From Acidobacteriota bacterium (lineage in GTDB: Bacteria > Acidobacteriota > UBA6911 > JACQSX01), in contig DASXQR010000069.1 of NCBI GenBank assembly GCA_036507075.1, positions 1 to 59,484 of the forward strand: 59,484 nt of DNA, read 5' to 3'. Under the pieces are notes generated by a model, which saw nothing but the letters and a program-made list of their open reading frames with translations, ran no database searches and had not been told where the DNA came from. The stretch's first letter is position 1. Every line of letters begins with the position of its first letter. This document shows positions 4,312-59,484 of this stretch, in pieces. The translations under genes were made by a program, and so were the position numbers.

Positions 4312-5615
4312 TGTGGGTTCACCCCGCAAACAAGCTGCAGGGAAATCCTGAGCTTCCTGGAGACAAATCCATTTCGCACCGCTATGCGATGCTATCGGCG
4401 CTCTGCCCTGAAGTAACTATCATTGAAAATTACTCACCCAGCGAAGACTGCCGCCATACTCTGGATTGCCTGGCCGCGCTGGGCGCTTATGTGTCATATG
4501 ACTCCGGTGCTGTGCGCGTGCAGGGAAAATCATTGGGGGAACTGCGGGCGCCTGGCACGGAGCTCGATTGCGGCAATTCGGGAACGACTATACGGCTGCT
4601 GAGCGGAATTCTCGCGGCGCAAAAATTTGAATCCGTGCTCACCGGCGACGATTCGCTGCGCTCGCGTCCCATGGGTCGGATTCTGGTCCCGCTCAGAAAG
4701 ATGGGCGCAGCCCTTGCCGTAACCGAATCGGAGTGTGCGCCGATTCGAATCGCCGGGCGACCGCTGCACGGCATCGAATATGTTCTACCGGTGGCCAGCG
4801 CCCAGGTGAAGTCCTGCGTTATCCTGGCCGGGTTGCACGCGCGCGGGTCGACCGAGGTAGTTGAGCCGATTCCAAGCCGCAGTCACACCGAGCGAGCCTT
4901 GCCCTTGTTCGGAGTGGATGTGGAAATTCAGAATGAACGCATCGCCGTCCGCGGCGGCCAGCAACCCCGGTCCCCGGGAAGGCTTCGAGTACCGGCCGAT
5001 CCTTCCGCGGCGGCATTCTTTTGCGTCGCCGCCTGCCTCATTCCAGGCGCCGAGGTGCGAATGAAAGGAATAAATTATAACCCCGCGCGCGTGGAATGGC
5101 TGCGACTGCTGCTCCAGTCAGGCGCGAATATTCGGATTGAGAACCAGAATGAAGTTTTCGGCGAGCCGATCGCGGATTTGACCGCGCGCTACGACCCTGC
5201 GTTTCTGGAAGGTTTCCCTGCAAAGATCGGCGGGAAGATGATCCCTTCGCTGATCGATGAGATTCCGATCCTGTCTGTGCTGGGTGCGCGCCTGCCGCGC
5301 GGGCTGGAAATCCGTGACGCTGCAGAGCTGAGACACAAAGAGACGGATCGTATCCGCACCGTCGCCGAGAACCTCCAGGCACTGGGCGCGAAAGTGGAAG
5401 AATTTCATGACGGCCTGCAAATCCATCCCTGTCGCGTGTTCAGCGGCGGGCGCATCGAATCCCGTGGCGATCACCGCATCGCAATGGCATTTGCCGTTGC
5501 CGGCTTGCTGGCCGACACGGATGTAGAAATTCGCGACAGCGGATGTGCGGCAGTGTCTTTCCCGGGGTTTTTTAAGGAATTGGAAAAATTGTCTGGAACA
5601 AATGGTACCCACTAA
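4311..5615 (+). CDS. aroA: 3-phosphoshikimate 1-carboxyvinyltransferase
   Basis: LPGDKSISHR, DCGNSGTT, SAQVKS, IDEIP, ELRHKETDR, DHRIAM; TGATG overlap with uvrB. Confidence 0.97.
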   Translation: MWVHPANKLQGNPELPGDKSISHRYAMLSALCPEVTIIENYSPSEDCRHTLDCLAALGAYVSYDSGAVRVQGKSLGELRAPGTELDCGNSGTTIRLLSGILAAQKFESVLTGDDSLRSRPMGRILVPLRKMGAALAVTESECAPIRIAGRPLHGIEYVLPVASAQVKSCVILAGLHARGSTEVVEPIPSRSHTERALPLFGVDVEIQNERIAVRGGQQPRSPGRLRVPADPSAAAFFCVAACLIPGAEVRMKGINYNPARVEWLRLLLQSGANIRIENQNEVFGEPIADLTARYDPAFLEGFPAKIGGKMIPSLIDEIPILSVLGARLPRGLEIRDAAELRHKETDRIRTVAENLQALGAKVEEFHDGLQIHPCRVFSGGRIESRGDHRIAMAFAVAGLLADTDVEIRDSGCAAVSFPGFFKELEKLSGTNGTH

Positions 5616-13344: not shown

Positions 13345-13599
13345 GTTATGAAGGGGAAGGAAGGGTTATGAAGGGGGATGGAGGGAAAGGACAAGGGATG
13401 ATAAGTGGAACAAAACGAAATAAGCCATCAGCCGAACCGCGCGCGTAAGCAAGCGGACCCTCGATGTAGCAGTTCTAATTAATTTGGTGCTTAGCGTTTG
13501 CTGCGTGGGTCCGCTTGTTTACGCGCGCGGTTCGGTTGGTAACCGCTTCCCTTCATCCCCCTTCATCCCCCTTCATAACCCTTCCTCCCCTTCCATAAC
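13345..13599. repeat. Fold-back element, family D (10-nt TGAAGGGGGA-type arms), enclosing a REP pair
   Basis: GGAAGGGTTATGAAGGGGGATG pairs with CATCCCCCTTCATAACCCTTCC. Confidence 0.88.
13429..13538. repeat. Inverted REP-like pair (family R2) nested in family D
   Basis: CAGCCGAACCGCGCGCGTAAGCAAGCGGACCC / GGGTCCGCTTGTTTACGCGCGCGGTTCGGTTG; same motif at 59388. Confidence 0.85.
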
Positions 13600-16222: not shown

Positions 16223-16432
16223 CCGCTGGCAGAAACTTTCGACACCACCAAACCATCATGGGATTCACTTTTTGCCCACTTCTTGATATAAAGTACTTTT
16301 GTATGCAGAGTTCTGAGCTTACGGCTCCTGCCCGGCCAATATTGCAGCAAATTCTAATTGCCCGATGACTCGTCAGTCTAAAGCCGGCAACTCGCAACGC
16401 GTGGAGTTGTGCTAGCATTAGGTCAGTTCGCG

Positions 16433-17227
16433 ATGGCCACGGAAGCGCTGAATTTTAAAGGGATTGTAAGGGAGGGGTCCCGGGAGGCGGACTTGCTCGC
16501 CCAGTTGGATCCACAGCGATTTCCCCGGCACATCGCCGTCATTATGGACGGGAATGGCCGCTGGGCTGCACAGCGACATCTTCCCCGTGTCTCCGGTCAC
16601 AAAGCAGGCATCGACTCGGTCCGTGAGATCGTTGAAACTTCAGCGCGGCTCGGAATTGACGCGCTCACCCTTTATGCCTTCTCCACGGAAAACTGGAAAC
16701 GTCCCAGGCCGGAGATCAACACTCTGATGGCTTTGTTGAAGGAATACCTTCAGCGCGAAGTGTCACGGCTGAACGAAAACAACATCCGGCTTTTGAGCAT
16801 GGGTCGCACCGAAGATCTGGCGGCCTCGGTGCAGGAAGAATTGCGGATTGCGGGGCGGCGAACGGCGCAGAATACCGGCATGAAATTGATTATTGCCCTC
16901 AACTACAGCGGACGGACGGAGTTAGTGGATGCCTTTCGAAAAATAATCCATCAACATCCGGGAATAAATCCCGCTTCGATAACCGAGTCGATGGTGGAAT
17001 CTCACCTCTACATGGAGGCCTTGCCCGAACCGGACCTGCTGATTCGAACCAGCGGCGAGATGCGAATCAGTAATTTTATGCTCTGGCAAATCGCTTATTC
17101 CGAAATCTACGTCACCGATACACTGTGGCCCGACTTTCGGCGCCGACATCTGTTCGAGGCAATCCTGGATTTTCAAAAGCGCGAACGCCGCTACGGCGGA
17201 ATTACCGTCAGTCCGACCTTCGAGTAG
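16433..17227 (+). CDS. uppS: Undecaprenyl diphosphate synthase (isoprenyl transferase)
   Basis: HIAVIMDGNGRWA, YAFSTENWKRP, DLLIRTSGEMRISNFMLWQ, ERRYGG. Confidence 0.97.
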   Translation: MATEALNFKGIVREGSREADLLAQLDPQRFPRHIAVIMDGNGRWAAQRHLPRVSGHKAGIDSVREIVETSARLGIDALTLYAFSTENWKRPRPEINTLMALLKEYLQREVSRLNENNIRLLSMGRTEDLAASVQEELRIAGRRTAQNTGMKLIIALNYSGRTELVDAFRKIIHQHPGINPASITESMVESHLYMEALPEPDLLIRTSGEMRISNFMLWQIAYSEIYVTDTLWPDFRRRHLFEAILDFQKRERRYGGITVSPTFE

Positions 17228-17424
17228 CAAACTTTTCACCAGAAAGGCTCAGATTTGCCACGAAGCCACGAAGGCACGAAGGACTGTTGTTCACTTTGAA
17301 GTGACACTTCTCATCACTCGATCGCAGGTATCGCAGAAGTGGGACGTCTAACTAAGTCATTGGGCTTTGTGTCTTCGTGCCTTCGTGGCAAACCCGTGCC
17401 TTTGTGGTGAAAAGTTTGCTACTC
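17222..17424. repeat. Outer fold-back (family I type) with perfect 20-bp terminal inverted repeat containing the uppS stop
   Basis: GAGTAGCAAACTTTTCACCA (17222-17241) / TGGTGAAAAGTTTGCTACTC (17405-17424). Confidence 0.9.
17252..17392 (-). mobile_element. MITE-like ~136-bp element, family E, copy 1 (inverted, more diverged)
   Basis: Reverse complement aligns over its whole length, including the non-repetitive core, with the copies at 18314 and 19718; mobility is inferred. Confidence 0.8.
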
Positions 17425-17434
17425 TGACCTCGGA

Positions 17435-18262
17435 ATGCTGACCCGGACCATTGCTGCTCTCAGTCTCGCACCGATAGTTCTCGGAATTCTGTTCTGGGCC
17501 CCGCCGTGGGCGTTCATCCTGTTCATACTTTTCGTTTCTGAGCTCACACTGTCCGAGTACCTGCGCCTGGTTCCCGGCCTGATCGATGCCGCCGCACGCG
17601 GCCTGCTTATGGTGCTTGCCGCCCTTCTGGTAGTCGGATCCGCCCTTGGGCCCGGACAGTTTGCGCCTCTAAGATCGCTGCTAATCCTGCTGGCAAGTTT
17701 TCTGGCTGTCACCATGTACACCGTGCTGACCAACTCGGACAATGCCCGCACTTTTTCCATCGTGGCCGGGTCTCTCTTCGGTCTGATCTATATCCCGTTA
17801 TCTCTGGCGCTGCTGATTCCAGTCCGTTTCGGCTATGATTTCCAGCTTACGGCCGGTGGCCAGACTTACGGTCGAAGCTCGATTCTCTTCTTGCTTCTGG
17901 TGACTTGGGCGGGCGATACGGGCGCGTACCTGGCAGGACGCAGTTTTGGGAAGCGGAAACTGGCCCCGAGAATCAGTCCCGGCAAGACAGTTGAAGGCGC
18001 GATCGCCGGGCTTATCTGCAGCGTGATTGTAGGAGTATTCTTTTTTTTTCTGGTCAGTCGCAGCCCTCTGTGGGTAGCCGGAGCCGCGCTGCTGAGCATT
18101 ATCGGACAATTCGGGGATTTGTTTGAATCGATGTTAAAGCGCGGGGCCGGTGTAAAGGATTCGTCGCAGTTGATCCCGGGACATGGAGGAATGCTGGATC
18201 GAGTCGACAGCCTTCTGCTTTGCTGCCCGGTACTTTTTGTGATGGAAGTGGGACGGTTTTGA
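17435..18262 (+). CDS. cdsA: Phosphatidate cytidylyltransferase
   Basis: DTGAY, ISPGKTVEG, GDLFESMLKR, VKDSSQLIPGHGGMLDRVDS. Confidence 0.97.
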   Translation: MLTRTIAALSLAPIVLGILFWAPPWAFILFILFVSELTLSEYLRLVPGLIDAAARGLLMVLAALLVVGSALGPGQFAPLRSLLILLASFLAVTMYTVLTNSDNARTFSIVAGSLFGLIYIPLSLALLIPVRFGYDFQLTAGGQTYGRSSILFLLLVTWAGDTGAYLAGRSFGKRKLAPRISPGKTVEGAIAGLICSVIVGVFFFFLVSRSPLWVAGAALLSIIGQFGDLFESMLKRGAGVKDSSQLIPGHGGMLDRVDSLLLCCPVLFVMEVGRF

Positions 18263-18270
18263 TTCCCGGT

Positions 18271-18506
18271 CGAAGTTTGAAATCGAAAGTGACACTCACA
18301 GACGTTGCCACACGGATTTGCCACGAAGGCACGAAGACACGAAGCTCAATGATTTAATTAGAAGTGCCACTTCTGCGACACCAGCGATTGAGTGATGAGA
18401 AGTGTCACTTCAAAGTGAAACAACAGTCCTTCGTGCCTTCGTGGCTTCGTGGCAAATCCTGGTCGCAGCTATCGGTGCCACTTTCGGCTTTCGACTTTCA
18501 GACTTG
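18271..18506. repeat. Outer fold-back, family F (7-nt GAAAGTC/GACTTTC arms)
   Basis: CGAAGTTTGAAATCGAAAGTGACAC / GTGCCACTTTCGGCTTTCGACTTTCAGACTT. Confidence 0.7.
18314..18459 (+). mobile_element. MITE-like element, family E, copy 2
   Basis: 8-nt CACGAAGG arms around a unique core; 18319-18454 differs from 19719-19854 at only 2 positions. Confidence 0.85.
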
Positions 18507-18508
18507 AA

Positions 18509-19693
18509 ATGAAGATGAATAAGAAAATCGCGATCCTCGGTTCGACCGGCTCAATCGGGCAAAGCACGCTGGATGTGGTGCGGCAGTCGCGGGGCAGATT
18601 CGAAGTCGTCGCCCTTGTCGGCGGTACAAATACTGAGGCCCTGTGTGACCAGATACGCGAATTTGCGCCTCGCATCGCCAGCGTTGTCGACAGCCGGCAC
18701 GCAGATGTGCTTCACAGGCAATTGACAAATCGAGGGATCGCAGCGCCACAGATCCTTTGTGGCGACGAAGGAGCCATTGCCGCCGCCACGCAGCAAGATG
18801 TGGAACTAGTGGTGGGCGCGATCAGCGGCGCGGCCGGCTTAATCCCCACATATCATGCCATCGAGCAGGGCAAACGGCTGGCTCTCGCCAACAAGGAAAC
18901 ACTGGTGATGGCCGGAGATTTGATCATGCCTCTGGCGCGCAAAAATGGCTGCTCCATCCTTCCTGTCGACAGCGAACACAATGCGCTGCACCAATGTCTC
19001 CAGGCAGTGCAACCCGATCAAGTCGACGAGCTTTTGCTTACCGCCAGCGGTGGGCCCTTCTTAAATCTGCCGCTGCACTGCATGGCCACCGTGTCGGTGC
19101 GCGAGGCCCTTCGCCATCCAACATGGCGCATGGGAAAGAAGATCACGATCGATTCGGCCACGCTCATGAACAAGGGGCTTGAAATCATTGAGGCACACCA
19201 TCTTTTCAATTTTCCACCCGATAAAATCCGGGTGCTGATTCATCCAAAGTCGGTCATTCACTCCCTGGTGAGAACAACCGACGGTTCCCTGATCGCGCAG
19301 ATGGGTATTACCGACATGCGCCTTCCAATTCTTTACGCGCTGAATTATCCCGAGCGGCTTCCATCGCCTTTCCCGGCCCTGGATCTCACCGCGGTGGGGC
19401 CCCTGGAATTCTTCAGCCCAGACCTCGCCAGATTTCCATGCTTGAAACTGGCTTATGAAGCCTTGCGAACGGGCGGAACACTGCCCACGGTCATGAATGC
19501 CGCAAATGAAGTGGCAGTATCGCAATTCCTCGGCGAGGAGATACCTTTTTCGGCGATTCCCGTCATCATCGAGCATGCCATGTCCGAACATAAAGCCGAA
19601 GCTGTGCGGGATCTCGATCAGATTCTGCAGATCGACCGTGAAGCGCGCACCCGAGCTCAACGAATCATTAAAGGCATGCTCCGTAGTCCGTAG
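18509..19693 (+). CDS. dxr: 1-deoxy-D-xylulose-5-phosphate reductoisomerase
   Basis: ILGSTGSIG, LANKE, PVDSEH, TASGGPF, HPTWRMGKKITIDSATLMNKGLE; start 18509 or 18515. Confidence 0.98.
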   Translation: MKMNKKIAILGSTGSIGQSTLDVVRQSRGRFEVVALVGGTNTEALCDQIREFAPRIASVVDSRHADVLHRQLTNRGIAAPQILCGDEGAIAAATQQDVELVVGAISGAAGLIPTYHAIEQGKRLALANKETLVMAGDLIMPLARKNGCSILPVDSEHNALHQCLQAVQPDQVDELLLTASGGPFLNLPLHCMATVSVREALRHPTWRMGKKITIDSATLMNKGLEIIEAHHLFNFPPDKIRVLIHPKSVIHSLVRTTDGSLIAQMGITDMRLPILYALNYPERLPSPFPALDLTAVGPLEFFSPDLARFPCLKLAYEALRTGGTLPTVMNAANEVAVSQFLGEEIPFSAIPVIIEHAMSEHKAEAVRDLDQILQIDREARTRAQRIIKGMLRSP

Positions 19694-19924
19694 TCCGTGG
19701 TCCGTAGAAAGTCCGAAATGCCACGAAGGCACGAAGACACGAAGCTCAATGATTTAATTAGAAGAGCCACTTCTGCGACACCAGCGATTGAGTCATGAGA
19801 AGTGTCACTTCAAAGTGAAACAACAGTCCTTCGTGCCTTCGTGGCTTCGTGGCATCTTCGGGCTTTCGACTTTCAGACTTTCAACAGACGACGAACCATT
19901 GACAACGGACCACGGACCAACGAC
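19681..19924. repeat. Outer fold-back, family B, enclosing family F and family E layers; contains the dxr stop
   Basis: CCGTAGTCCGTAGTCCGTGGTCCGT / ACGGACCACGGACCAACG; inner GAAAGTCCGAA / TTCGGGCTTTC. Confidence 0.8.
19718..19855 (+). mobile_element. MITE-like element, family E, copy 3
   Basis: Near-identical direct repeat of copy 2, exactly 1400 bp downstream. Confidence 0.85.
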
Positions 19925-19978: not shown

Positions 19979-21304
19979 ATGGCTCATATAATCGGTACCA
20001 ATATTCTTGCTCTTATATTTGTTCTGGGCGTGATGATCTTCGTTCATGAGTTCGGGCATTATGTCGTGGCCAAACTGCTGAAGATCCGCGTCGACGTTTT
20101 CTCGCTGGGTTTTGGTCCCCGTTTGTTCGGTTTTCGAAAAGGGGACACGGATTATCGAGTGAGCGCGCTTCCCCTGGGCGGCTACGTCAAGATGGCGGGC
20201 GAAAACTTTGACGAGGAATTGACCGGGGCTGAGGACGAATTCCTTTCCCGCCCGAAATCACACCGTATGGCCGTCGCCATCGCGGGCCCGCTGATGAACT
20301 TTCTGCTGGCCATTGGTTTGCTGGCGGGAAACCTCATCCTGGGAGTGCAGATTCCCGCCTACCTTTACGAACCACCCATAATCGGAGCAATTGATCCCCA
20401 TTCTCCCGCCGAAAGAGCAGGCCTGAGGGTCGGAGATCGAATTCTATCCATCGGGAATTCGAAGACTCAAAACTGGGAGGATGTAACCTTTGCCACCGGC
20501 GCATCGGCGCGCAGGCCGCTGCCCTTCCGGATTCAGCGCGACGGAAAACAGCTTACCGGCTCGATCACTCCCGAACCGGCGCCCGACACGCAACTGGGAT
20601 GGATCGGCGTGGGGCCGCTCTTCCCGTCCATTGTAGGCAGCGTGGAACCCGGAAGCCCTGCGGATCGCGCAGGCCTGAAGCCGCGTGACGAGATCATAAA
20701 AGTGAAATCTCCAACCCGAGAGGTATTCACTTTTTCACAGGCACGCGCCTTGATCGCCGAGAATGAAGGAAAACCGCTTGAATTTACCATCCGCCGGGGA
20801 AAGGAGACTCTGCAGAAAACCATCATTCCGCAGAAGATCGCTGGAGACGTTCGTATCGGATACGTTCCCGAGCCGCCACCGTTGATGACCAAGAAATTCG
20901 GCGCGCTGGACGCCATCCGTGAATCGATACAACGCAATTACCGGCTCACACTGTTGACGTTTAACATCGTGGGAAAAATTCTGACCGGTGACGCCAGCAT
21001 TCGCACCATTTCCGGCCCGATTGAGATCGCGCGGTATTCCGGAGAAGCTGCGCGGCGGGGCGCCAGCATCATGATGGAATTCATGGCGATGATTTCTCTT
21101 CAGCTTGGAATCTTCAACCTGTTCCCGATACCGATCCTGGACGGGGGAGTAATCTTCCTGCTGCTGGTTGAAAGCCTGATCCGCCGGGACCTCAGCCTTC
21201 AGGTAAAAGAGCGCATCTTCCAAATCGGTTTTATCTTCATCATCCTGCTGATGGGGATTGTGCTCTTCAACGACCTGAACAAGAGCTTGACGCTGTTTAA
21301 ATAA
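19979..21304 (+). CDS. rseP: RIP metalloprotease RseP
   Basis: HEFGH, PLGGYVKM, two PDZ domains, NLFPIPILDGG; follows dxr. Confidence 0.97.
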   Translation: MAHIIGTNILALIFVLGVMIFVHEFGHYVVAKLLKIRVDVFSLGFGPRLFGFRKGDTDYRVSALPLGGYVKMAGENFDEELTGAEDEFLSRPKSHRMAVAIAGPLMNFLLAIGLLAGNLILGVQIPAYLYEPPIIGAIDPHSPAERAGLRVGDRILSIGNSKTQNWEDVTFATGASARRPLPFRIQRDGKQLTGSITPEPAPDTQLGWIGVGPLFPSIVGSVEPGSPADRAGLKPRDEIIKVKSPTREVFTFSQARALIAENEGKPLEFTIRRGKETLQKTIIPQKIAGDVRIGYVPEPPPLMTKKFGALDAIRESIQRNYRLTLLTFNIVGKILTGDASIRTISGPIEIARYSGEAARRGASIMMEFMAMISLQLGIFNLFPIPILDGGVIFLLLVESLIRRDLSLQVKERIFQIGFIFIILLMGIVLFNDLNKSLTLFK

Positions 21305-21351: not shown

Positions 21352-22533
21352 CTATGCTTCGCGGCTAAAGCTGGCGGGTTCGATGATTTTGAACTTCTGC
21401 TTCAGCGTATTGGTGATCAGGGCGAGGATGGAAAGCACGCTTTCCTCAAAGTTGATGTTCTCGATGATGTGAATTCCATACCGCTCGGACATCTCGATGA
21501 TGTAATCCTGAATTTCAAGAATGGCATCGAAATTCGCCAGATATCGATCCGCCTGGCGGCTTTGCGCTTCGGCTTGCCGCTGCACAAAACGCTCCCGGTA
21601 CTTGGAGCGGTTCAAAGTCGTGATGGTCAACGGTATGACGTAAGCGACCTCGGAATACACGTCGTAGTCGATCAGACCCGGAACCAGGTGGACCCCATCC
21701 ACCACCAGGCTGATGTTCTCTTCGACCGAGCGTTCGATCATGGCCTTGACGCCGGCGCAAACTTTTGAAGCCTGTTCCTCGAACGCTTCTACAACACGCG
21801 ACTTGGAAGGATGGAGGAATTTCTGATCTTTCCAGGCTTCGTAAGAAGAATGATGGATGGACGGGAGCAGTTCCAGGCTGAACATCATGCGCATGATCTG
21901 GCGCACCGTGTCGGTGCTGAGCAGCTTTCTAATTGCCAGGCGATGCGCCACTTCTGTGGCCAGAGACGACTTCCCCGTTCCGGTGGCGCCTCCAAAAAGA
22001 ATGATGATCGGCTTGTCCGGCGATCGAAAGCGACGCCACAGAAGGTAGCGCTCTGCGTATTGGCGTCCTTGCGCCTTGAGAATGGTCTGACAGATTAACT
22101 CGCGGAGCTCTTCGCGGTTGATGTAGGGTCGATTGGCGCGCAGCAGGCCCAATTCTATGTCGCGGGCCACATCGTATGAAATAGCCGGATCGAGGCCTGA
22201 GGCCTGCAGCGACTGCGAAAGAAGTCCTTTTGAAAATGGGCTCTCGCCTCTTTTGTCGCGTACCTGGATCGTGTGGTCCTGCGACAGCACGGCGTCGGGC
22301 TCGTGCAGCGAAACATCGCCCAGGCGCTCATGTACAACCTTCTGGATGAGCTTGGAGAGATCCTCCTTGCTGATTTCCTTCTGGGGCCCAATCTGCTTGC
22401 GGACCAGCGTGGAAATCTCATAGGCCTGATCGAAGTTCAGGCCGCGCTTCACCAGCGAATGGGTGACCATTCCCCGCAAAAAGGGGATCCGATGGTCCCC
22501 CTCAATTACGTAGATATCATGGGCTTTACCCAT
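21352..22533 (-). CDS. 2-phosphoglycerate kinase-like P-loop protein with two ATP-cone domains
   Basis: PFLRGMVTHSL and PFSKGLLSQSL cone repeats, GGATGTGKS, STDTVRQIMR, VDGVHLVPG. Confidence 0.85.
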   Translation of the reverse strand: MGKAHDIYVIEGDHRIPFLRGMVTHSLVKRGLNFDQAYEISTLVRKQIGPQKEISKEDLSKLIQKVVHERLGDVSLHEPDAVLSQDHTIQVRDKRGESPFSKGLLSQSLQASGLDPAISYDVARDIELGLLRANRPYINREELRELICQTILKAQGRQYAERYLLWRRFRSPDKPIIILFGGATGTGKSSLATEVAHRLAIRKLLSTDTVRQIMRMMFSLELLPSIHHSSYEAWKDQKFLHPSKSRVVEAFEEQASKVCAGVKAMIERSVEENISLVVDGVHLVPGLIDYDVYSEVAYVIPLTITTLNRSKYRERFVQRQAEAQSRQADRYLANFDAILEIQDYIIEMSERYGIHIIENINFEESVLSILALITNTLKQKFKIIEPASFSREA

Positions 22534-59253: not shown

Positions 59254-59417
59254 TTCACCACAGGGACACAGAGAGTACAGGGAGAGGCAGAAGGCAGGAC
59301 GCAGGAGACAGAAGGCAGGACGCAGGAGGCAGAAGGCAGGACGCAGAAGGCAGCAGGCAGAAGGCAGCAGGCGGCGGATGGGCACGCCAGCCGAACCGCG
59401 CGCGTCAGCAAGCGGAC
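59254..59417. repeat. Three stacked left arms: family I, 7-nt GGCAGAA/CGCAGGA array (family M), REP R2
   Basis: TTCACCACAGGGACACAGAG (59254), array 59285-59372, CAGCCGAACCGCGCGCGTCAGCAAGCGGAC (59388-59417); no partner arms inside the window. Confidence 0.8.
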
Positions 59418-59484
59418 TCTCCGGAATAACGGCACGCAGATAAGCTTTGTAGATTGTGGTCGCCAGGTTATCCTTCACAACGGT

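Follow-up and report, generated by a model that had tools for sequence, protein, structure and literature searches.

Near-identical hairpin elements in consecutive spacers of an acidobacterial uppS-cdsA-dxr-rseP operon: probable local copying and a candidate nuclease partner

The 59,484-nt contig DASXQR010000069.1 of an Acidobacteriota bacterium, referred to over its whole length as the window, carries a uppS-cdsA-dxr-rseP operon in which one gene-less hairpin element of about 136 nt occupies all three consecutive spacers. The three copies (Table 1) are members of a family of about 85 such elements in the genome (G000; 6.1 Mb, 233 contigs, 95.7% complete), and the trio likely arose by local copying of the whole element. 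A fuller account, in which copying from spacer to spacer was driven in trans by a predicted PD-(D/E)XK nuclease of the GxxExxY type with like-armed gene cassettes, is somewhat favoured as the explanation of its origin.

Three related copies in one operon

Copies 2 and 3 are direct repeats identical at 134 of 136 positions, the two differences lying at 18365/19765 (T/A) and 18394/19794 (G/C). Copy 1 is inverted and more diverged, with 126/136 identities to copy 2, nine mismatches and one gap. An earlier, sequence-only reading of this DNA had described these relations, named the four genes and found the core nowhere else in the window. All of these statements are borne out, the gene identities by Pfam. 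The spacers measure 207 nt (uppS-cdsA), 252 nt (cdsA-dxr) and 285 nt (dxr-rseP), and a long hairpin is predicted for each copy (DNA folding z -5.7 to -8.3; 0/200 shuffles).

The same reading had proposed recent local copying of whole units, which the analysis supports: the trio are mutual nearest relatives among the 85 family members and form one clade (support 0.89). They are also the sole bearers of the arm variant GA|CG (3 of 28 scoreable copies). A single clade that alone carries this variant argues that arms and core moved together. Copy 1 has the letters of copy 2 wherever copies 2 and 3 differ, and a conserved box is broken by one of the two changes in copy 3, which suggests that copy 3 is the derived member of the pair. 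The hops probably ran from site 1 to site 2 and later from site 2 to site 3.

Support from sequencing runs

The trio is very probably real. The assembly was checked against Logan contigs and unitigs of several runs, of which X1 is possibly the source sample; counts refer to the pieces listed, and the rule for a spanned junction was 31 nt inside the element. In X1, a 130-nt unitig over copy 2 has a depth of 26.8, compared with 10.9-15.9 in the neighbouring unique unitigs, which fits two copies. The copy 2-dxr junction is spanned in a second sample, X2, with 36 nt within the element. The dxr-copy 3 (X1, X2) and copy 3-downstream (X3) junctions are reached with 30 nt, one below the rule, and the uppS-copy 1 junction with 26 nt (X1). 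Among the pieces listed, none covers the copy 1-cdsA junction or the two diagnostic letters of copy 3, and none extends across the whole operon. Runs X5-X7 have no piece over a spacer junction, and cdsA is partly uncovered in X1-X4, which is uninformative. A 1062-nt contig of X1/X2 does not represent the cdsA stretch and was left aside.

That copies 2 and 3 are an assembly artefact is highly improbable. A short-read assembly of this many contigs, an operon spanned by no read and the absence of copy 3's two letters among the contigs listed would all be in keeping with such an error. However, the shared unitig at twice the depth, the unique flanks joined in X1, X2 and X3, and the intact genes in their ancestral order, as in the relative G002, speak against it.

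A genome-wide family of gene-less hairpins

The element is not confined to the operon locus. A profile search (nhmmer) of the genome yields 132 matches, of which 85 are full length (score at least 55, both ends covered); the 47 partial or foreign matches were kept out of the family counts. The frame is constant: TTT mostly stands outside, each arm consists of two or three heptamer units, a palindromic GAAGTGNCACTTC box lies inside each arm, and the fill varies. The boxes lie 14-18 nt inside the arms with 24-25 nt between them in 64 of 76 scoreable copies, and 82 of the 97 sites of the box core AAGTGNCACT in the genome fall inside family matches. They are conserved across deep subfamilies. By gene calls that are rough and were made for this analysis, 84 of the 85 copies lie outside genes.

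At six boundary offsets, target-site duplications of at least four bases occur in 0-3 of 70 copies, near the cross-pair control. Co-directional gaps hold 40 of 79 copies (1351 of 2325 gaps overall) and orientations number 23 and 17, so that neither shows a bias. Insertion within 20 nt of a stop codon is seen for 22 of 45 copies against 16.9 expected, which is not convincing. Sigma-70 promoters and terminators occur in the copies at chance level. Rfam gives no match above the gathering score, the single match being to MIR2619 with 25.4 bits against a required 113. Folding of the core alone is weak (median z -1.2). Conservation of the boxes by base pairing was considered and rejected: 17 compensatory changes stand against 6 expected among copies that, as kin, are not independent, but 209 changes are one-sided, and sequence rather than pairing seems to be kept.

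Local copying and dispersal

The sequence-only reading had inferred local copying. Genome-wide, a small excess of near relatives is present, but most copies are dispersed, and local copying is a minority route (7 of 85). The nearest relative lies within 20 kb for these seven, against 0.82 expected (p 0.0008). When the window contig is left out, the count is 4 of 82 against 0.76 (p 0.019), and the nearest relative lies on the same contig for eight copies against 1.5 (p 0.0014). Family copies less than 3 kb apart number 10 against 3.3 (p 0.003). Of 2332 spacers, 1422 have a relative, and for 33 of these the best one lies within 5 kb against 2.2 expected, an excess of about 15-fold that includes a few pairs bracketing a Y1 transposase gene or plain heptamer runs and rests on the rough gene calls. 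One gene separates 16 of 32 local spacer-repeat pairs; 21 pairs are direct and 11 inverted. Copying into the next spacer is therefore widespread among the repeats of the genome, though as a minor route.

Besides the composition of the all-spacer count, other results tell against the spacer-to-spacer account. Without the window contig, close pairs show no rise in mean similarity (p 0.11 and 0.60). Most neighbouring copies are unrelated, and the majority of sisters are found on other contigs, which do not give the true distance. Finally, 73% of pairs with similarity above 0.9 share a flank score of at least 10; since close relatives so often share their flanks, many copies appear to be passengers of an outer element rather than lone movers.

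Two further local groups were seen. A second 98% pair, inverted and 8 kb apart, lies at G000:C16 2136-2261 and 10148-10267, the latter at the contig end. A second local trio belongs to a family of doublets resembling repetitive extragenic palindromic (REP) sequences, at G000:C170 16871, 18755 and 21181, in steps of about 2 kb and with 86-87 of 92 positions identical.

Distribution in relatives and beyond

Four orthologous stretches from three relatives of the same family but other genera (G001-G003) lack the element and any match to its core. In G002, uppS, cdsA and dxr abut or overlap, as do uppS and cdsA in G003, and in G001 the orthologous spacers hold small or different hairpins. The absence of the element, together with abutting or overlapping genes in the relatives, suggests that the window spacers are lineage-specific insertions between formerly coupled genes. 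These relatives are too distant for a base-exact empty site. None was found in close strains, and within the genome there is none for sites 1 and 2 and merely family-level matches for site 3. The dxr-rseP spacer of G001 is independently occupied by a different heptamer hairpin family, and uppS in the window is a few residues longer than in the relatives.

Wider scans used exact matches, which miss diverged copies. Arm and box together occur in 0 of 300 other genomes of the phylum. Three-unit arms were found in 2 of 136 other genomes of the class; the two belong to the same family, and the hairpins that these arms close there are short and lack boxes. The genome contig set gives two loci, one a true copy and the other chance-like. 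The true copy, 92.7% identical to a G000 copy, lies on a 6-kb contig of a bin titled Pyrinomonadaceae, is the only one in that bin and reflects either misbinning or transfer. This contig has three repeat types in common with G000 (790-921, 2501-2624 and 4379-4429), near a tRNA gene and an integrase remnant. Metagenome contigs contribute two loci with one true copy, and viral contigs one chance match with a box plus hairpins that share only the arms. In one 38-kb viral contig, the same arms recur in spacers as short hairpins or half hairpins, at least seven in number. The family is lineage-restricted.

Host hairpins and homogenisation

Each copy had been placed inside a different host hairpin. 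Every copy is indeed flanked by inverted arms of other repeat families, but the hosts are partly shared. A 20-nt arm variant of the GACTTTC heptamer family is common to sites 2 (18486-18505) and 3 (19861-19880); of 23 related sites, 3 have it. Sites 1 and 2 have 9 nt in common on the left and 5 nt on the right. At sites 2 and 3, either the host was copied locally too, or one event plus deletions took both. The identity of copies 2 and 3 first breaks off at the element termini, on both sides. Host hairpin arms take in the ends of the uppS and dxr reading frames, with the final codons and the stop (window 17212-17227 and 19679-19693).

These shared flanks bear on an alternative in which no dedicated enzyme acts and older like-armed spacer hairpins were overwritten from a neighbour, by gene conversion or by template switching during replication. 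Such host-only homogenisation is unlikely, although it would accommodate the flank pieces shared beyond the element, the local excess across many repeat families and the lack of target duplication. It also fits the presence of these arms on short hairpins that lack the core, in G001, G003, viral contigs and soil contigs. However, the identity of copies 2 and 3 ends at the termini on both sides, and the arm variant moves with the core. Moreover, the orthologous spacers examined in the relatives lack such arms, and three prior insertions in a row would still call for an explanation.

The proposal that the elements target existing hairpins finds no support above background. Strongly pairing 75-nt flanks surround 25 of 82 copies, 14 of which are among the 16 copies inside a single REP-like doublet family. 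Outside that subfamily the proportion is 11 of 66 (17%), compared with 12% of points drawn at random from other spacers, in a blunt test whose cut-off trio sites 2 and 3 themselves fail. A test with 40-nt flanks initially placed 22 of 83 copies beyond the 1% level of random genome points; with the REP-hosted subfamily left out, this signal disappeared against an intergenic control.

GxxExxY nucleases as candidate drivers

The PD-(D/E)XK fold implies a nuclease. G000 has six GxxExxY matches (TIGR04256 / PF13366), four of them full-length frames; those on C37, C83, C140 and C145 are intact. Inverted arms with the unit pattern of the element flank 26 of 30 further GxxExxY loci on both sides, the loci being drawn from other genomes and one viral contig (0/1500 shuffles). 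In G000, the arm types of four of the five other GxxExxY genes each close 20-140 hairpins, nearly all shorter than 300 nt and too short for a gene. The remaining match, at G000:C59 around 76852-77207 on the minus strand, is a GxxExxY gene reduced to 356 nt by internal deletion; it has the termini of the element at both ends and lies directly after the stop codon of another gene. The element thus resembles GxxExxY cassettes in its arm unit and terminal CCAC layout, and one deleted cassette in the genome has identical ends. Unlike the cassettes, it is gene-less, and its core is unrelated to them: the core profile finds no match in cassettes, so the core is not a piece of one.

A mechanism can be proposed. 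A GxxExxY nuclease would recognise a hairpin that is extruded or single-stranded and cut it at its heptamer arms, and host repair synthesis would copy the element into an exposed nearby site on the same fork or in the same transcription unit, at times carrying over a few flank bases. The twin boxes would be putative protein-binding sites. Copies would last in the operon because they lie between genes, and recombination that removes dxr would probably be lethal and hence unseen.

As the driver of this element, GxxExxY is a tentative candidate, and several findings detract from it. No intact GxxExxY gene with exactly these arms was found in G000 or among the 30 loci, and the exact box is in none of the 30. 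Comparison of the core profile with 35 GxxExxY loci and the 3' part of the C59 gene gives one weak edge match only (E 0.06). The fifth arm type (C145) closes no gene-less hairpins by the pattern used. GxxExxY proteins have no known activity, and a PDB sequence search with one returned only weak ankyrin-type noise and no informative solved relative.

A broader proposal is that GxxExxY nucleases are the mobilisers of heptamer-armed hairpin families, with one nuclease gene for each arm type, comparable to REP doublets forming hairpins (REPINs) and their REP-associated tyrosine transposases (RAYTs). The twin-box element would be parasitic on this system, copying itself without target duplication and preferably into the next intergenic gap, and the trio would record two successive hops. 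In this general form the proposal is doubtful.

The flanks of other candidate genes were also searched. Apart from the deleted C59 gene, no long element closed by these arms was found at Y1, four-helix-bundle or GxxExxY genes, and none of seven four-helix-bundle loci in G000 has the arms within 900 nt. These results bear on a second enzymatic explanation, in which the element is a REPIN-like substrate of a Y1 transposase of the HUH class (RAYT or IS200/605 TnpA), excised or copied as a single-stranded DNA hairpin at the fork and reinserted nearby without duplication. This is improbable. The genome has 12 Y1_Tnp matches, target duplication is absent as expected, and the REP-like doublet family has the largest young subfamily in its loop, with the element in 13 of the 57 doublets listed (one locus twice). 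REPINs are likewise reported to insert into or beside other REPINs, in the accessible part of the source (PMC3116915). Nevertheless, the arms, the box and this REP doublet are all missing within 900 nt of every one of the 12 Y1 genes, it is GxxExxY cassettes that the arms match, and the trio lies outside the REP host.

Genes for Y1 transposases, GxxExxY proteins, four-helix-bundle proteins and others have a conserved two-part motif (TTCGCAGATTT, 12 nt, GTTATG) immediately upstream, at 15 G000 sites by one pattern and 41 by a looser one. It looks like an alternative-sigma promoter shared by the cassettes. The idea that the core of the element is an embedded promoter of this type was rejected, since 1 of 85 copies exceeds the 95% level of the null.

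Comparison with known repeat systems

Statements on published systems rest on the accessible parts of the papers cited. The family consists of two inverted short repeats around a spacer, forms long hairpins, is intergenic and multicopy, as REPINs are, and it has terminal inverted repeats around a non-coding core of less than about 400 bp, as do MITEs, the miniature inverted-repeat transposable elements. It is REPIN- or MITE-like in its working and is assigned to neither, because the tests for RAYT flanks and for target duplication failed.

REPIN-RAYT systems resemble the family in being gene-less, hairpin-forming and intergenic, in numbering about 100 copies in subfamilies nested in other repeats, and in having a candidate partner gene flanked by similar repeats (PMC3116915). 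However, the arms here are tandem heptamer arrays rather than REP palindromes, the candidate partner is a PD-(D/E)XK nuclease rather than a Y1 transposase, and sister elements lie one gene apart. REPIN spacing is described as random above 200 bp, with clusters in tandem (Bertels and Rainey, 2011; PMC3116915). Bacterial MITEs such as Correia, ERIC, Nezha and Chunjie share the size, the terminal inverted repeats around a core and the stable hairpin, and Chunjie also inserts inside an operon (PMC3184786; PMC10969869), but the present element lacks a target-site duplication and no insertion sequence with its ends was found. Xanthomonas and Nostoc have inverted pairs of heptamer repeats (PMC4692102), and Beggiatoaceae have TAACTGA repeats (PMC4679880); like the arms here, these are intergenic heptamer arrays, occur in operons and often form inverted pairs near stop codons. 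Neither a conserved twin-box core nor a mobilising gene is described for them in those texts. For the Xanthomonas and Nostoc repeats, no association with mobile elements was found (PMC4692102).

In the accessible literature, which leaves aside subscription papers and supplements, neither the element itself, nor hairpins paired with GxxExxY, nor copying into the next spacer was found described. Non-autonomous hairpin repeats as such are familiar, the present element being an unremarkable type of bacterial selfish repeat, and the family is narrow in range, so that the trio alone is modest news. The next-spacer bias, if it holds, limits the mechanism to something local, for example a fork or a transcript. 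The near-identical donor-recipient pair would also be a ready substrate to test whether the large, uncharacterised GxxExxY nuclease family moves hairpins.

Consequences for the operon

The RNA stems of the spacers reach the stop codons of uppS and dxr and the starts of cdsA and dxr (-110 to -116 kcal/mol each). These stems are one point in favour of a regulatory origin, in which the copies were kept by selection as operon parts such as RNase III cut sites, terminators or operators at the twin boxes. Conservation of the boxes across deep subfamilies and the RNase III cleavage reported for Correia elements in the accessible text (PMC10969869) are in line with it, and by the same analogy RNase III processing of the trio spacer RNAs is plausible. 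Even so, a regulatory origin is very unlikely: the operons of the relatives lack the element, the family has no bias for co-directional gaps or orientation and no excess of sigma-70 promoters or terminators, and copies 1 and 3 show decay of the left box. The insertions may plausibly affect expression, but as a consequence and not as the reason for their origin.

Recombination between the copies had been suggested as a means of deleting dxr or inverting cdsA. This is possible in principle, but no sign of it was seen in the contigs, and gene order and orientation are as in G002. Since dxr is single-copy and an HMG-CoA reductase was not found in the 95.7% complete genome, a cell that lost dxr by recombination of copies 2 and 3 would probably not survive.

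Features of the operon and neighbouring repeats

Table 1. Positions in the window of the element copies, boxes, operon genes and host hairpins.
Feature	Position	Strand	Remarks
Element copy 1	17256..17390	-	135 nt; inverted; looks oldest of the trio
Element copy 2	18319..18454	+	136 nt; three-unit heptamer arms, two boxes, variable fill
Element copy 3	19719..19854	+	136 nt; differs from copies 1 and 2 at both positions separating copies 2 and 3
Left palindromic box of copy 2, GAAGTGNCACTTC	18361..18373		One base changed in copy 3, three in copy 1
Right palindromic box of copy 2	18399..18411		Same in all three copies
uppS	16409..17227	+	PF01255; start codon uncertain
cdsA	17435..18262	+	PF01148; between the inverted pair (copies 1 and 2)
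dxr	18515..19693	+	PF02670/PF08436/PF13288; between the direct pair; start 18509 or 18515
rseP	19979..21304	+	PF02163, PDZ
Host hairpin 1, left arm	17222..17250		ACCACAAAG heptamer family; takes in the uppS stop codon
Host hairpin 1, right arm	17396..17424		Ends 10 nt before the cdsA start
Host hairpin 2, left side	18264..18318		GACTTTC heptamer family plus an inner imperfect layer
Host hairpin 2, right side	18455..18510		Extends to the first ATG of dxr; contains the 20-nt variant 18486-18505
Host 3, left side	19679..19718		ACGGACC-family arm (gives the last dxr codons and stop) plus a 12-nt GACTTTC-family remnant
Host 3, right side	19855..19924		GACTTTC-family arm (19861-19880 same as at site 2), then ACGGACC-family arm

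Two stretches of the window, 13429-13540 and 59388-59421, belong to the REP-like doublet family, of which 57 pairs are listed genome-wide; several of its members have a box-like word beside the arm. A gene resembling an ATP-cone and P-loop kinase lies at 21352-22533 on the minus strand, convergent on rseP.

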